64,000 bases of DNA from Mobula hypostoma (GCF_963921235.1 NC_086097.1:83702001-83766000); one strand, 5' to 3'; counted from the first letter of the stretch, positions 32,238 to 40,500 are shown. Translations and numbers: made by a program. The notes: generated by a model not told the origin, from the sequence alone.

Positions 32238-32252
32238 GATGGATTTCAGCTG

Positions 32253-32481
32253 TGAAGCACCTTCAATTACTCCAAAAGGCTGAGGTTTGGTAAAATACTG
32301 AAAGGCTTTTATTCGCTGTACAATGTGACCTCCACAGTGAGTGTCTGCCCCCGGACTGAGGGGGAGGGGCAAGGCGAACACCTTTATACAGGACTCTGTG
32401 GGAGGAGCCACAGGGGCAGTCAGCAGAGGTGTGTGTCCAGACAGGTAACCGAGTTACAACATATATACATGGTTTACCACA
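32253..32481 (-). repeat. 3' LTR (229 bp)
   Basis: Direct repeat of 36543-36772, immediately preceded on the - strand by the polypurine tract. Confidence 0.95.
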
Positions 32482-32501
32482 TTCACCCCTCCTTTTTTTT
32501 T
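32482..32501 (-). promoter_or_regulatory. Polypurine tract
   Basis: - strand A-run + GGAGGGGTGAA directly abutting the TG of the 3' LTR. Confidence 0.85.
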
Positions 32502-32552: not shown

Positions 32553-35500
32553 TTACAGGTTAAGTCTATCAGGCGGTCGAGTCCGTCGCTGTGATCTACG
32601 TAGCACCGGCGGTGATTGCACCAGCGATGGCGGTTGTGCTGGCTCCGGCCTGACTTCAGGTGCCAGCACGTTAGGCGTTGGTAATCCCTCGTGCGTGTGC
32701 GTCGCGCCCGGTATGGGAGTGTCGTGTGGTGTCTGTATAGGGTTTGGGGTGCACGGTGTCTCGTAGGTACATACATTGGTGGGTACGGGGTCAATAGTCA
32801 CCACGGAGTGTTCAGGGTAGGGGCCCGGAGCTCCTGCGGGTGCCAGGTCGCAGATGGAGACCGTGTCCTCCCGCCCATCAGGTAAAACCACGTAGGCATA
32901 CTGGGGGTTCGCATGAAGTAAGTGGACCCTCTCGACCATCTGGGAGTATTTATTGACCCTCGCACGTTTCCGGAGCAGCACTGGCCCCGGGGACTTCAGC
33001 CAAGATGGTAGGGTGGTCCCAGTGGTCGATTTTCTGGGAAAAGAAAAGAGCCGCTCATGAGGGGTGGCATTGGTGGCTGTGCATAACAGGGAGTGGATGG
33101 AGTGCCTCGGGAAGGACCTCCTGCCAGCGGGAGACCGGCAGTCCCTTTGACCTGAGGGCTAAGAGTGTGGCTTTCCACACTGTGCCATTCTCCTTCTCTA
33201 CCTGTCCATTCCCCCGGGGATTATAGCTCGTGGTCCTACTGGTTGCAATTCCCCTAGTCAGTAGATATTGGCGCAGCTCGTCACTCATAAACGAGGACCC
33301 TCTGTCACATGTGGACATAGCATGGGTATCCGAACAGAGTGAAGAGCTTGCGCAGGGCTTTTATAACTGAAGTGGTAGTGGTGTCGGGGCAGGGGATGGT
33401 GAAGGGGAACCGCGAGTACTCGTCAATTACGTTAAGAAAGTACACGTTGCGGTCGATGGAGGGAAGGGGGCCCTTAAAGTCAACACTCAGTCGCTCAAAG
33501 GGGCGAGTGGCCTTGATGAGTGGTGCCTTTTCGGGTCGGTAGAAGTGCGGTTTGCACTCTGCGCAGACTTGGCAGTCCCTGGTCATCATCCTGATCTCCT
33601 CAAGGGAGTAAGGCAGGTTCCGGGCTTTCACGAAGTGGAAAAGCCGGGTGACTCCCGGGTGGCAAAGGTCTACATGTAGGGCGTATAGCCGGTCGATCTG
33701 CGCGCTGGCGCATGTTCCCCGGGATAGGGCATCAGAGGGCTCGTTGAGCTTCCCAGGCCTGTACATGATGTCATAGTTGTAGGTGGAGAGTTCGATTCTC
33801 CACCCCAGAATTTTATCATTTTTAATTTTGCTCCGCTGCTGATTATTAAACATGAATGCAACTGAGCGCTGGTCAGTTAGCAGGGTGAACCTTTTGCCGG
33901 CAAGATAGGGCCTCCAGTGCCTTATAGCTTCCACTATGGCCTGGGCCTCTTTCTCCACCGCGGAGTGCCGAATTTCAGGGCCTTAAAGGGTACGGGAGAA
34001 GAACGCCACTGGTCTTCCTGCCTGGTTGAGGGTAGCAGCCAGCGCAAAGTCGGAGGCGTCACTCTCTACTTGGGAGGGAATGGCCTCATCCACTGCATGC
34101 ATTGCTGCTTTGGCAATGTCCCCTTTTAGGCGGTTGAAGGCCGTGTGGGCTTCGGCAGAGAGGGGGAATGTGGTGAACTTGACCGGGGGCAGGCCTTGTC
34201 TGCATAGTTAGAGACCCATTGGGTGTAATATGAAAAGAAGCCCAGGCACCTTTTGAGGGCTCCGAGGGTATTGGGAAGAGGGAGTTCCAACAAGGGGCGC
34301 ATACGGTCGGGGTCAGGGCCAATGACTGCATTCTCCATGACACACCCAAGGATAGCAAGTCGGGTGGTCCCAAATACACACTTGTCCTTGTTATAGGTGA
34401 GGTTGAAAGATTTGGCCGCTTGGAGAAATTTTTGGAGGTTGTTGTCGTGATCCTGCTGGTCATGACCGCAGATGGTGATGTTATCCAGATATGGGAACGT
34501 GGCCTTCAGTTGGCACTGGTCCATCATCCGGTCCATTTCCCTCTGGAAGACAGATACACCATTTGTGACACTGAAGGGGACGCGCAGGAAGTGATAAAGC
34601 CTGCCGTCCGCCTCGAAGGCAGTGTAAGGGCGGTCCTCCTGGCGGATGGGGAGCTGATGGTAAGCAGATTTTAGGTCTATGGTCGAGTACACCTTGTACT
34701 GTGCTATCTGATTGACCATATCCGCGATGCGGGGTAGAGGGTACGCGTCGAGCTGCGTGAACCTATTGATGGTCTGGCTGTAGTCCACGACCAACCTATT
34801 CTTCTCCCCGTTCCGAACAACCACCACCTGCGCCCTCCAAGGACTTGTGCTTGCCTCAATGACCCCCTCCCTGAGCAGCCGCTGCACCTCCGACTTAATG
34901 AAAGCTCTGTCCCCCACGCTGTACCTTCTGCTTTTAGTTGCCACAGGTTTACAGTCAGGGGTCAGGTTGGCGAACAGCGGTAGGGGAGGGATCCTGAGGG
35001 TAGAGAGGCCGCAAGTGGTGTCGGTAGTGTGGCAGTTGGCATGATGTTGGGTGGGATGTGCGGGTCGGTGGGTGTGGGTGGTCAGTAGCGGGGTACATGA
35101 CATATCTCTACAAAACAGGGGATTTATGACAGTAATTGGTGGGAGGGGCCCATCATACTTCATTGTCACGCTTTTTAGGTGGCTCTGGAAGTCCAACCCC
35201 AACAGCACAATTGAGGCAAGACCAGTAACATAAAGTCCCGATATTCTGTGCCCTGCACCACTAGTGTCGCTACACAACCACCCCGGATGTCTGTTGTATG
35301 CGACCTGGAGGCCATGGTGACCCTCCGACTTACCGGCCGTATCATGAGTCCACAATGCTGCACCGTGGCCGGGTGGATAAAACTCTCCGTGCTGCCTGTG
35401 TCAAACAGGCAGCTTGTCTTGTGCCCCTCCACCAGGATGTCCATCATTGACCTTGTGAGCTGGTGGGGAGCGCTTTGGTCAAGGGTCACGGAAGCCAGGG

Positions 35501-36516
35501 TGGGGTCGCTGTCTTGGTCCGGCGTGGTGGGGTGCCCCGTGAGCACCCATTGGTCATAGGCGGTGGGAGGTGGCGCTGACAAGATGGCCGCCCCCGTGTC
35601 TCGCACGTGGTGGTGGCGTGCAGGGAAGATGGCGGCAGGCAAGATGGCGACCCCCACGTCTTGCAAGTGATGGCAGTGTGCAAGGAAGATGGCGGCCCCC
35701 ATGTCTCGCACGTGGTGGCAGTGTGCAGGGAAGATGGCGACCCCCACGTCTCACACGCGGCACTGCTCAATCCCGCTCGCGGTTTTGACTTACAGACCTT
35801 GGCGAAGTGGCCCTTCTTTCCGCAGCTGGAACAGGTAGCTTGTCGGGCCGGGCAGCGTTTCCGGGGGTGCTTCTCCAGTCCGCAGAAGTAGCACTTCGTG
35901 GACTCACGACTGGCGGCAGCCGAGGTAGATTCGCCGGCAGGTTGCAGGGTCTGCGGCACCCACGAGGCCATCGGGGGATCGCGTGCCTGGAGAGCCTCGG
36001 AGTTATGCAGAGTGGCCTCCAACGTATCAGCCAGCTCCATCGCCAAACTTAGGGTAAGATCGGCTTTTCCAGCAGCCGCTGGCGCACGTACACTGACCTG
36101 GTCCCCGTGACGAAGGCGTCTCTCACTAGGAGTTCTGCATGCTGCGCCGCAGTCAGCTCCTGGCAAATGCAGGCTCGCACGAGTGTCTGTAGGGCCCGGA
36201 CAAACTCAGCACTCGATTCCCCGGACCGTTGTTGCTGTGTCGCTAAACGGTGCCGAGCATAGACGCTGTTTATCGGCCGCAGGTATTGTCTTTTGAGTGC
36301 GTTCATTGCACCGTCGTAGTTCGGCTGGTCTCTGATCAGCAAATAGACCCGTGGACTGACCCTGGAGAGTAGAACTCAGCGCTTCGCTACGGGGTTGGTC
36401 GCTTTAATCTCCTCTAGATACGCTTCGAAGCAGGCCAGCCAGAGTTTGAAAGCGTTTCCAGCTTCAGGTGTTTGCGGATTGAGGTCTAATTTTTCTGGTC
36501 TCAGGGACTGTTCCAT
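32553..36516 (-). pseudogene. Disrupted gag-pol of the Gypsy element
   Basis: ATG at 36516 (MEQSLRPEKLDL...) with an early TGA and several frameshifts. Protease LFDTGS; RT IDLKSAYHQ...YLDN; RNase H TDAS/EKEA/TDQ; integrase H-x4-H...CQVC, DFKG, DRGS, EKEN; ends LRRSQRRTRPPDRLNL*. Confidence 0.9.
35581..35760. repeat. 45-bp coding tandem repeat (~4 units) between the gag knuckles and protease
   Basis: AAGATGGC starts at 35581, 35626, 35641, 35686 and 35731. The - strand translates as repeated CETWGxPSSLHTATT. Confidence 0.85.
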
Positions 36517-36526
36517 GTTTTAAAAC

Positions 36527-36541
36527 GTACAGCGAATAAAA
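36527..36541 (-). promoter_or_regulatory. Non-tRNA primer-binding-site position, TTTTATTCGCTGTAC, complementary to the element's own LTR
   Basis: Begins 1 nt after the 5' LTR end and lacks TGG. Exact reverse complement of 3' LTR 32307-32321 (- strand GTACAGCGAATAAAA); 14/15 against 5' LTR 36598-36612. Confidence 0.75.
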
Positions 36542-36542
36542 T

Positions 36543-36772
36543 TGAAGCACCTTCAATTACTCCAAAAGACTGAGGTTTTAGTAAAATACTGAAAGGCTTT
36601 TATTTGCTGTACAATACGACCTCCACAGTGAGTGTCTGCCCCCGGACTGAGGGGGAGGGGCAAGGCGAACACCCTTATACAGGATTCTGTGGGAGGAGCC
36701 ACAGGGGCAGTCAGCAGAGGGGTGTGTCCAGACAGGTAACCGAGTTACAACATATATACATGGTTTACCACA
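36543..36772 (-). repeat. 5' LTR (230 bp)
   Basis: Direct repeat of 32253-32481. About 8 substitutions and 1 indel by eye (~96% identity). TATA-like motif and AATAAA on the - strand. Confidence 0.95.
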
Positions 36773-37052
36773 AGCTGCAAGGTTAAAGTAGAGAGGCTTG
36801 GAGCAAGGAAGGTCAAGAGATTTAATAGGGGGTTGAAAATTCATGACTTGAATGTTGTAAACACAGAGAAGCTGTCCTGCTTCAGAGAGAGTTCCAGCAC
36901 CAAGGAACAGAAAGTTAAAAGTAAAGAGTAAAAAATGCAGAATGTAATCTATGAATCTATTTATTTTAGAGTAATGACCCTCTCCACCGTATAACTATGT
37001 ATTGATCTGATGTTTGCATATGTGCATTGACCTGTTGTCTACACAATGCGCA

Positions 37053-37510
37053 TTTCTCTCTCTCTCCCTCTCTCTCCCTCTCTCTCCCTCTCTCTCCCTC
37101 TCTCTCCCTCTCTCTCCCTCTCTCTCCCTCTCTCTCCCCCTCTCTCCCCCTCTCTCCCCCTCTCTCCCCCTCTCTCCCCCTCTCTCCCCCTCTCTCCCCC
37201 TCTCTCCCCCTCTCTCCCCCTCTCTCCCCCTCTCTCCCTCCCTCTCTCCCCTTCTCTCTCCCTCTCTCCCTCCCTCTCTCCCCCCCTCTCCCCCCCTCTC
37301 CCCCTCTCTCCCCCTCTCTCCCCCTCTCTCCCTCCCTCTCTCCCCTCTCTCTCCCTCTCTCCCTCTCTCCCCTCTCTCCCCTCTCTCTCCCTCTCTCCCC
37401 TCTCTCTCCCTCTCTCTCCCTCTCTCTCCCTCTCTCTCCCTCTCTCTCCCTCTCTCTCCCCTCCCCCTCCCCTCCCCCTCCCCTCCCCCTCTCCCCTCTT
37501 CCCCCCCCCC
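37053..37510. repeat. Pure polypyrimidine tract, ~458 bp, 10-bp units CTCTCTCCC(C/T)
   Basis: No purine seen on the + strand across the interval. Confidence 0.95.
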
Positions 37511-40500
37511 AATGTGAGTACGCCAGTTAAAGTCGTCTGCTGTGTGTGCTTTTATTTATGTAAGGGTCTTTGCCCCGCTGACCCCCTGTTGCCTAGGGTG
37601 AATAGCCGTCAACCCCGCCAACAGCTTTGGTGCGGATAAGGTGTGAATCGCCCAATGATCAGCCACGACACAAATATGAAACAATATACAAAGTGCGAGT
37701 AAATAATTATACTTTATAGCAAATTTTTGGTGTTGGGTTAGTAGAAACAACTACAAGAAATGGCGCCACATAAGTAACTTACCAGTCTTGTGCACATAAT
37801 ATTTTAATCGCCTCCGATTCCATCCACAACGTCCTTCCAAGACTCTGGCCACCCTCTGAACCCCCAAGGTTCGGTGTCCGCCGCCCAGGAACCCCGTCTG
37901 TTCCTCACACGTCCGTCCTCTCTGCTCACCTCCTGAAAAAGCCCCCGCTCCTCAACTCAGCACACGTACAGGATAACAGAACATGACTTCCGTTGGCTAA
38001 CAAATGAATACAATTTCCATTATCTCCCTGTATAACCCAAACATTGCAGTTACAGAGAACCCCTTGCTTAGCAGTTAACATTACGAGAAGCCATTTTAAT
38101 ATAACAGTTCAGAGAAGCCATTTTGGTAATAAGTGATCAACAGTTAACAGTGCACCTAGTATACTGAGAGCCCTACATTTAATTGATATGTAGTTGTGTA
38201 CAGACACAACACAGAGTAATACAAGGAAAAATGTGCAACGACTGATTGCAAACTGGAATTTTGTACAACACCAATGAGATTGCCCTCAAGATATTCAATG
38301 TAACTGGATGGAAATAGATGCATTTATAAGAGACTTCAGCAAACAGTTGTGGTAGAAACCCAGCATGACTGTGAACTTCAGCCACAGCACTGTACCCCAA
38401 CTACCTGTTGATGTAGCTGAAGGGCAATATTTTCCATATTTCTTTGTGATGTAGAAGAAGGCCATTTGGCCAGTGAACAGAGCAATTAATTTGTAAGGCA
38501 ACACAAAGATGGTAGCTGAATAGGCTGCTCGGAGAGAGCCAACTTGGAGTCGATTTTGCAAATGCGCATTTCCGGTCTTGTAATGATCCTCTGTTCAGAG
38601 TGAAACATCCCGAACTTTTCCAACCTCTTTCTGAAAGTGTCGAGAGTATTCAATCCTGACTTACTCAGTCCATTACTCCTGGATATTTGTAGTTTAAACA
38701 GAGAAGTGAAATTCAAGATTCATCACTTCTGAAGTATTAAGGAGAATTGATTCTCGAGTCCGAGCTGACTGTGAAGCTAACTGTTATGAGACTCCCTCCC
38801 CGAGGGAATCGGCTTCTGGATTTTGGGCTGCATTTGCATTCCAGGCTAAACTTTATGAATCTCTGCCTGTGTTGAAGTTGAAGACAATCACGGACAACCC
38901 ACAAATTGTGGGCAAGGACGTGAAAAACCTACCTTTGTACCTGCAGGGTTGGCATGAAGCCAAGTTTCTGTCCTGCTCCGTGTGAGTTGCATTCTGTTTG
39001 TAGGTTTTGGCCCAAACCTGGGGAGTCAGTGAGAGACTGACGGCTATTCAGCTTTGGTCCTGAAGCAGCTAAATGTGTGGTGCTGGGAAAAGCTGACTGG
39101 TATCAATCTTTTTAACAAATGGGGTTCTGTCCAATGTTTGCATTAAACCACTGTAGTCTAGGACAAATAATTAATTGTTATGGAAGCAATTTGGGGCAAT
39201 TTAGCAGAATGTTATGTATAAACAAGATAGCAAATATTTCTTTATCTGAGTGTTTTTTCCCTCTCCTATCTTCTCCTGATCTAGTACAGAAATTGGAGGA
39301 GTTACATTTATGAAGTGTGTGTGTGTGTGTGTTTGGAATTGTGTGTCTGAAGGTGGCTGCAAGGCAGCCAGAAAGCTGAGTTTTATTTTAAACTCTTGTT
39401 TGCAATTCCACATCATCATAAACTGAAAGGCTTTGGTTGTCTGGTTCCAACTTTGTGCTTCCTACGTATGCTGGTATTTCAAAACACAAATGATTGCTTG
39501 CATTGTGGAGTTGGCAGAGATTTTTTTTAGAGTTTTCTTTTAAGGAAAAATTGAAAAATGATATGATCCTTCAAGAGCTAAGCAGTATAATTTTAAAGTT
39601 CAAAAGTTCAAAGTAAATTTATTACCAAAGTACAGATATGCCACCATATATAACCTTGAGTTTCCATTTCCAAATATTAATGTAAAAAATATGGTTAGTT
39701 CAGACCATCTTAATTCGAAGAACATATCGAAGAAATGAGATGAATTTAAAAGTGCACTCAATGGCAGAGATTTCACTTTAGTGCCTCTGATACTTTTTTT
39801 CTGTCAGGAGATCTGGTCATATGTTCCTTGGGTGCATCTTAGCTGCTGGCAGGGTAGCTAGGTCTACATGAAGCAGCCTGAATCATACAACTATGCACAA
39901 CAGTGCAAGAAGCTGTGCTACAGGCTATTCACTTCATACCTGCCCCCTTCTCTTGTTGCCAAGATCCAAAAGAATCTTCTATAACTTCTAGAGCAAGTGG
40001 AAGCACCAGATTTCTGTGGTACTGAGCTTCCTGACAGAGGAGGACTACCTGTCGATGGTATACTCATAAGCTGTTCCTGATTCTTCACCTGCATATCCTG
40101 AAGAGAGACATGTACACATGCTCCCTGATGGCATGTGCATGACCTTTCGACGAGAGGGACCACCATCAGGATGTCCTGAGTTCCACAGTTCTCACGGGGA
40201 GTTAACTGTCTTCTATTAGGACCCATTCAAGAGTATGGGACACACTCAGCTTTAGTTGGGTTGGTCCCCAACTGCAGAAGAAGGCATGCTGGCTATTGTG
40301 GCTGGACATGGGGACAGACCAAGTTGGAGAAGAGAAAGCCACTCACCACTGGGGCTTGTATCTGAAGACTTCAGGGATCCTATCAAAGTGTATGGTTTGG
40401 GTTCTGTGTCCCAACCCAGCTAACTGCACTGGGCTGTAATTATTAGTAAGTCACGTGCCCTTTGCATGCTGTTCTGACTCTCAGCAATGCTTTCCATTCC

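Follow-up and report, generated by a model that had tools for sequence, protein, structure and literature searches.

Structure and state of the element

The window analyzed here, a stretch of 64,000 nucleotides from Mobula hypostoma (GCF_963921235.1 NC_086097.1:83702001-83766000), carries on its minus strand an element bounded by two long terminal repeats (LTRs) of 229 to 230 bp with TG...CA ends. All the features of the element described below lie on this strand. The two LTRs, recovered as direct repeats (D1 and D3), are 96 to 97% identical. The 5' LTR (TGTGG...GCTTCA) occupies 36543..36772 and ends in ...GGTGCTTCA at 36543, and the 3' LTR occupies 32253..32481. The target-site duplication CAGCT is read at 36773..36777 on the 5' side and again at 32248..32252, in the five bases right after the 3' LTR. 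A polypurine tract, AAAAAAAAAGGAGGGGTGAA (32482..32501), stands directly ahead of the 3' LTR.

The domain order is gag, followed by protease, reverse transcriptase (RT), RNase H, and integrase. The 5' part of gag (36049..36516) opens with an ATG (36514-36516) and contains one in-frame TGA. Its 3' part lies in another frame (35486..36205), in an open reading frame (ORF) that encodes two CX2CX4HX4C knuckles (zf-CCHC match), as the first-pass annotation of this sequence had stated. The reading frames further include an aspartic protease with the DTG motif (35175..35750; Pfam gag-asp_proteas, E = 1.5e-08), an RT ORF (34126..35400; RVT_1, E = 8.4e-22) whose motif C is YLDN when aligned to the YLDD of Ty3, RNase H and the integrase core in three frame pieces (33055..34207; matches to RT_RNaseH, RT_RNaseH_2, and rve), and an integrase C-terminal region with a proline-rich tail (32553..33158), which matches no Pfam family and has no chromodomain. 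The LTRs, the duplication, the polypurine tract, and the domain order all fit a Ty3/Gypsy (Metaviridae) LTR retrotransposon, and the best solved relative is the Gag-Pol of Ty3 (E = 1.1e-51). The coding region is broken by the in-frame stop and several frame changes, and this copy is a dead, decayed element.

Two repeats were also recorded in this region. At the gag-pol junction (35581-35739), a 54-nt unit is present three times in tandem (80 to 91% identical) and encodes a repeated peptide rich in proline, arginine, and histidine. About 220 bp from the 5' LTR, a long GA-rich microsatellite made of GAGAGGGAGA-like units extends from about 36995 to 37555.

A primer site complementary to the LTR of the same element

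There is no TGG right after the 5' LTR and no tRNA-type primer site. A single spacer A (36542) separates the CA end of the LTR from a 15-nt primer-binding-site tract, TTTTATTCGCTGTAC (36527..36541), and the same arrangement (...ACA, then A, then TTTA) is found in relatives. The repeat search paired this tract with GTACAGCGAATAAAA in the 3' LTR (32307..32321) over 15 nt and with 100% complementarity (inverted pair I5). The equivalent tract of the 5' LTR, GTACAGCAAATAAAA (36598..36612), is a candidate self-primer that contains AATAAA and departs from the exact complement by one CpG-type change (CG>CA). The LTR tract complementary to the primer site ends in AATAAAA. By simple arithmetic, the chance that a 230-nt LTR holds the exact reverse complement of a given 15-mer is around 2 in 10 million. 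The gag gene starts close by: the A of its ATG (36516-36514) is the 27th base past the LTR, and ten bases lie between primer site and ATG. These observations agree with those of the first-pass annotation, which had described the missing TGG, the 15-nt reverse complement 1 nt past the LTR, the perfect 3' LTR tract and the single change in the 5' LTR tract, and the 27-nt distance to gag.

The predicted fold gives a pair probability of about 1.0 to 13 of the 15 pairs. The loop between LTR tract and primer site (36543..36597) would consist of the rest of R and U5, and within it an inner stem is predicted between GCCUUUCAGUA (36587-36597) and UAAUUGAAGGUGC (36547-36559). Further upstream, reading and alignment place a TATA-like box at 36674..36679 with the sequence TATAAG; other copies have TATAAA or AATAAA instead. 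It precedes the start of the LTR tract by 67 nt, close to the 65 nt or so first estimated. The motif CTCAGTCC (36644..36651), which we take to be Inr-like from the Inr consensus, follows the TATA-like box by 31 nt and is kept in all the aligned subfamilies.

A search for sequencing runs with this sequence listed nine, all as Logan contigs and none recorded as RNA, and contigs from four of them were compared over 36380-36830 of the window. Every contig covering 36674 has another letter there than the window copy. The contigs are short and break off in varied ways at 36543 and 36772, the edges of the LTR, as genomic DNA would, and no start site, poly(A) tail, or informative joint is visible in them. 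In three of the runs, the summed contig depth over the LTR (36543-36772) was roughly 10 to 50 times that over the gag leader (36380-36540), an excess that would fit many solo LTRs, contig depth being a poor measure.

Compensating changes among copies in the Mobula genome

The M. hypostoma assembly (3.48 Gb) was searched for further copies. A query made of the LTR and primer site gave at least 2242 candidates, the 40 scored ones being 97 to 100% identical, and the RT ORF gave at least 24,879. All 30 of the 5' LTR junctions that were fetched carry LTR tract and primer site in one register. The 15-nt match within a copy is perfect in 20 of them and one base off in the other 10, 8 of these at CpG sites, as expected from decay after insertion. 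A normal TGG primer site, which the first-pass annotation had proposed to look for in other copies, is absent from these 30 and from the relatives described below. At one locus (L032), extra LTR copies in both orientations surround one element, probably as a nested or rearranged insertion.

A further 20 copies were picked for their lower RT identity (81 to 92%). Subfamilies differ here by changes made on both sides of the helix together, with ACAGCG facing CGCTGT, ACTGCG facing CGCAGT, or ACTGCT facing AGCAGT, and another subfamily change turns the first pair from G:C to T:A. Among 31 distinct sequences that were aligned, the long helix has two-sided changes at 4 of its 15 pairs. The covariation score of this helix was 0.061, versus 0.040 for shuffles, and was reached by none of 500 shuffles. 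Pairing amounted to 95.6% and dropped to 36 to 51% when the partner was slid out of register. Counting the patterns over the whole genome gave 469 loci with ACAGCG and CGCTGT, 39 with ACTGCG and CGCAGT, and 56 with ACTGCT and AGCAGT, against mixed combinations at 3 loci and 10 loci. These counts alone do not prove selection, since linked sites in related copies are inherited together. What counts in the subfamily comparison is the complementarity of the paired changes.

These subfamilies bear on the possibility that a host RNA (a tRNA, a tRNA fragment, or a small RNA) containing the tract is the primer and that the match to the LTR is secondary. LTR elements are as a rule primed by tRNA, and priming by half-tRNAs also occurs, as a passage of PMC6317226 reports. 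Nevertheless, such an RNA would have to end in ...AAUAAAA-3' and not in CCA. Moreover, three subfamilies of one genome have three versions of the primer site, and distinct families have about 22 different tracts (see below), each fitting its own LTR, changes that a conserved host RNA cannot track. From this comparison of tracts and LTRs, we consider a host primer very unlikely.

Pairing is retained in distant relatives with unrelated tracts

Homologs were searched with the 1021-aa open pol of a genomic copy (L037), and 1393 proteins matched it at E <= 0.001. Identity to the query is 56 to 91% in the best 120 of these 1393, most of which come from contigs of about 4 kb. Their named sources are rays, sharks, a sea anemone, a whipworm record, and two bacterial bins. 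The two proteins of the clade in such bins (P0015 and P0058) are filed as DDE-type integrases under "Rhizobiales bacterium" and "bacterium" and probably represent eukaryotic DNA binned with bacteria.

An alignment of 14 homologs led to 80 metagenome loci with 39 to 66% protein identity. The start of gag was located in 37 of them, and the 43 others, with no detectable gag start, were left out. One more (L063) was dropped because its gag start lies too near the contig end, leaving 36 testable loci (37 rows). An exact reverse complement of 11 to 19 nt to the LTR is present in the 60 nt before gag in 32 of the 37 rows, which represent 31 of the 36 loci. When 200 same-sized internal windows were used as a control, none reached that length in 29 of the 32 matching rows. 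Of the three remaining rows, two had 2/200 and 12/200 such windows, and the third lacked a control. Five rows fell short of an exact 11-nt complement: L074 has a deletion inside the primer-site tract, L122 and L127 have an 11-bp pairing that includes one G.U, L089 has a match of 9 nt only, and L064 has no complement in the 60 nt before gag. LTR pairs were also looked for in the most distant metagenome relatives (L113, L117, L118, and L107), and none was found.

The letters of the tracts are almost wholly different between families, and the pairing is retained. Over the first 12 positions of 25 tract types, 99.3% of cells are paired, whereas 2000 shuffles of the partners averaged 63.5% and never exceeded 75.3%. 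The high pairing in this set and in the set of 22 families used below is partly by construction, since families were chosen for having a match. The real test of chance is the internal-window control and not the shuffling of the 25 tracts. Each of positions 4 to 12 shows three or four pair types across the 25 tract types. The first-pass annotation had proposed to examine whether tract and primer site covary among family copies and relatives. Complementarity is kept with compensating changes in the former and with unrelated letters in relatives as diverged as 39 to 66% protein identity.

Pairing aside, position 10 from the 3' end of the tract is G in 21 of the 25 families, and position 11 is A in 16 of the 25. 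The distance between this conserved A-G and the presumed cut, 11 nt, equals the Tf1 primer in length, and the A-G might be a start-site mark or a recognition element.

These comparisons leave little room for a complement due to chance or to a passive event without function, such as a rearrangement that left part of the LTR in inverted form. Short inverted matches are indeed common, with 19 pairs in 9 kb, but the other pairs are imperfect or derived from a microsatellite, while that of the primer site is exact and lies at the primer position. The compensating changes in hundreds of copies and the unrelated letters of the distant relatives contradict this explanation, which is extremely improbable.

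Position, poly(A) hexamer, and adjacent hairpin

In the families examined, a single base separates ...ACA from the primer site. Most of their LTR tracts finish in TAAA or TAAAA, and a canonical AATAAA or ATTAAA overlaps this 3' end in 12 of 22 families. These 12 have no second canonical hexamer, either within the loop or over the 150 nt upstream. The other families mostly have variants that differ by one base, such as GTTAAA, TTTAAA, and GATAAA. Hence the statement of the first-pass annotation that the paired LTR tract holds an AATAAA resembling a poly(A) signal is correct for the focal family and extends to most families when variants are counted.

The three bases after the tract are GCC or ACC (RCC) in 18 of the 22 families. 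In minimum free energy folds of 27 sequences, a prediction with no shuffle control, the long stem runs straight into a hairpin opened by RCC in 19. Examples of the stacked hairpin are ACCU/AGGU, GCCUAU/GUAGGC, and ACCAU/AUGGU. A stem-loop resembling the U5-IR is thus predicted to adjoin the primer duplex, and the loop between tract and primer site measures 24 to 68 nt across families. In the predicted fold of the focal family, the pair probabilities of the long stem are near 1, and the inner stem (GCCUUUCAGUA with UAAUUGAAGGUGC) has 97.9% of cells paired with no two-sided change.

The gag gene starts 0 to 32 nt after the primer-site tract. In several families, the tract adjoins the gag ATG or extends into it (distance of -1 to 5 nt). 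This proximity, together with the canonical hexamer at the tract end in 12 of 22 families and the lack of any other canonical hexamer nearby, would also be expected if the duplex were a regulatory hairpin only, which hides the 5' poly(A) signal, controls gag translation, or acts in RNA packaging and dimerization, with reverse transcription primed by something else. Yet there is no alternative primer site, as no TGG follows the LTR and gag begins within 0 to 32 nt of the tract. Besides, the tract lies one base after the CA of the LTR in all families, a register that masking would not need, and the tracts of L111 and L094 still pair with no hexamer resembling a poly(A) signal. A purely regulatory role is therefore unlikely, though less so than a host primer or a chance match.

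Placement of the clade

The focal clade is non-chromoviral by domain content. No Chromo domain (PF00385) was found in the 1021-aa open pol of L037, in the window copy, or in the best 120 homologs, in line with the first-pass annotation, which had seen no evident chromodomain. SH3_Tf2-1 and Integrase_H2C2 were not found in the L037 pol either, nor were Retrotrans_gag and Ty3_capsid in the gag of copy L034. Two CCHC knuckles are present in the window copy and in 83 of the 120 listed homologs, a trait that is presumably typical of Mag.

The LTRs of the clade are about 150 to 270 bp long. In relatives, they start with TGTAGTAT or TGTTGTGA and end in ...ATACAACA or ...TCATAACA. The LTRs of the Mag C clade are described as short (training length of 174) with the motif TGTNATRT...AYANAACA in Table 3 of PMC3601003. 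Several relatives fit the 3' motif of Mag LTRs, but the focal family (TGTGGTAA...GTGCTTCA) is only a loose fit. The Mag lineage (Mag, SURL, and Jule, with clades A, B, and C) is widespread in metazoans, including vertebrates, according to passages of PMC6238403 and PMC8556966, and it shares with the focal clade this wide spread and the lack of a chromodomain. Taken together, short LTRs, end motifs, knuckles, lack of a chromodomain, and metazoan spread suggest that the focal clade probably belongs to the Mag lineage and resembles its C clade. The literature passages on the Mag lineage that were covered do not state its mode of priming.

Among the 116 homologs with a readable RT motif C, 91 have Y-x-D-N and 25 have YxDD or FLDD. 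The YLDN of the focal element aligns to the YLDD of Ty3 and of a sushi-like element of the same genome. Judging from these alignments, a very active clade carries asparagine in place of the second catalytic aspartate of RT. The literature search returned no paper for "YLDN", and the motif is absent from the supplement sequences of PMC6238403 and PMC8556966 that were searched.

Comparison with known self-primed elements

In Tf1, Tf2 (Schizosaccharomyces pombe), and Tj1 (S. japonicus), Ty3/Gypsy elements whose self-priming was demonstrated by experiment or deduced, a stretch of the mRNA derived from the LTR pairs with a site after the LTR, is freed by RT/RNase H, and primes the minus strand, as described in passages of PMC4600332 and PMC5341516. 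The focal clade resembles these elements in having no tRNA primer site and an LTR RNA that complements the site after the LTR, and a stem-loop adjoining the duplex is predicted here too. A U5-IR stem-loop is reportedly required for self-priming in Tf1. In Tf1, the primer consists of the initial 11 nt of the RNA, whereas the complement of the focal clade measures 11 to 19 nt and ends in a hexamer resembling a poly(A) signal. Unlike that of Tf1, the tract of the focal family lies 67 nt after the TATA-like box, and the proteins lack Chromo, SH3_Tf2-1, and Ty3_capsid.

Self-priming has been proposed for the Tf1/sushi group of vertebrate chromoviruses, sushi-ichi and its relatives (passage of PMC6317226, citing Butler 2001). 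Sushi-like elements of the same genome (L131 to L138, on other contigs) were found by their Tf2-type SH3 domain. One base past their LTR, AACGAACTGGC matches GCCAGTTCGTT in the middle of the LTR (11 nt in L135 and 10 nt in L134), and a TATA-like box, GATAAAAA, precedes the LTR tract by about 30 nt. They carry Chromo (L131, L134, and L137), SH3_Tf2-1 (L131, L132, L134, and L137), and Integrase_H2C2, and the only sushi-like gag ORF scanned, that of L134, has Retrotrans_gag and Ty3_capsid. The RT of a sushi-like element is 29% identical to that of the focal clade. Their LTRs are about 350 to 430 bp long and their 11-nt tract has no poly(A) hexamer, while the LTRs of the focal clade are shorter and the hexamer, or a variant of it, lies in the tract of most families. 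The same analysis thus finds the published Tf1/sushi signature where it is expected, showing that the method recovers the known case. Both signatures together mean that two Gypsy lineages of this genome have self-complementary primer sites, which differ in geometry.

Self-priming has also been predicted for plant Tcn1 and TAR Copia (passage of PMC6317226). They share with the focal clade the tract after the LTR that complements their own LTR, but they belong to other superfamilies or clades, and no link to a poly(A) signal is reported for them. A full-text literature search found no self-primer linked to a poly(A) signal, and it did not link Mag, SURL, Jule, or the C clade to self-priming. The original papers on these elements may contain an earlier description. 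The RCC hairpin and a primer that overlaps the poly(A) signal appear to be clade-wide features, and the literature searched yielded no description of them.

A model for self-priming at the poly(A) signal

We consider it likely that the focal family primes its own reverse transcription in the manner of Tf1, with a primer that overlaps the poly(A) signal. In the genomic RNA, the R-region tract GUACAGCGAAUAAAA would fold back over a loop of about 55 nt, formed by the rest of R and U5 and itself a hairpin, and would pair with the 15 nt starting one base after the LTR. The RNase H of the element, or another nuclease, would then cut the RNA where the duplex ends on its 3' side, between ...UAAAA and the conserved RCC. 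The freed 3'-OH would be extended through the spacer A, the LTR end with U5, and the short remainder of R. The resulting strong-stop DNA, of about 55 nt (approximately the loop length), would jump to the 3' R.

The LTR usually has no poly(A) hexamer other than the one in the tract, so that the tract must lie within R. The duplex of tract and primer site would probably keep the 5' poly(A) signal silent; at the 3' end, no primer site follows, and the signal would be free. A duplex confined to the 5' end of the RNA would be a simple way to ignore the poly(A) signal there, and such masking is plausible. Retroviruses whose signal lies in R likewise have it at both RNA ends and must ignore the 5' one, by means of promoter proximity or, in HIV-1, the poly(A) hairpin. 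The likeness is that an RNA structure would silence the 5' signal; the difference from the HIV-1 poly(A) hairpin is that the partner strand in the focal clade would be the primer-binding site, tying silencing to priming. The first-pass annotation had proposed a variant self-priming mechanism, a hairpin masking the poly(A) signal, or both. The first part is strengthened by the covarying pairing, the lack of a TGG site, and the lack of a chromodomain, and the second, masking, is one that we infer.

The place of the RNA 5' end affects this model. In the focal family, the conserved TATA-like box and the Inr-like motif predict that the RNA starts 36 nt upstream of the tract, which would support the variant geometry suggested by the first-pass annotation. 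However, a 36-nt tail at the 5' end of the primer would be copied into the plus-strand strong-stop DNA and so hinder the second jump. Either the start lies 36 nt upstream and an extra step is needed, or the start lies elsewhere. No TATA box at a consistent distance was found in the relatives, some having a TATA-like sequence about 30 nt before the tract and others none. Given the problem of the tail, the pairing that is retained out to the first base of the tract, and the TATA-like sequence about 30 nt before the tract in some relatives, a start at or near the tract is no less likely.

It is tempting, although clearly more tentative than self-priming in the focal family, to extend this model to a pan-metazoan clade of non-chromoviral Gypsy elements, from sea anemones to rays. 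The poly(A) signal of these elements would be the 3' end of the self-primer, the duplex would silence it and then be cut, the geometry would be distinct from that of Tf1/sushi (of independent or older origin), and the RT would mostly have YxDN.

Implications for LTR elements and their hosts

So far, self-priming has been associated with chromoviruses of the Tf1/sushi group and with a few lineages of Copia. If it were the rule in a second, very successful clade of animal Gypsy elements, the view of how primer use evolved in LTR elements would change. The clade is large, with about 25,000 RT candidates in the Mobula genome, and is abundant in marine metagenomes. Its members would be under-called or mislabeled by annotation pipelines in which a tRNA primer site is required. 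The natural YxDN motif makes their polymerase a ready case for the study of the second catalytic aspartate. A primer that overlaps the poly(A) signal gives a simple and testable answer to how very short LTRs distinguish the 5' from the 3' poly(A) signal. Finally, if self-primed, the clade would escape the host defenses in which tRNA fragments are aimed at primer sites.
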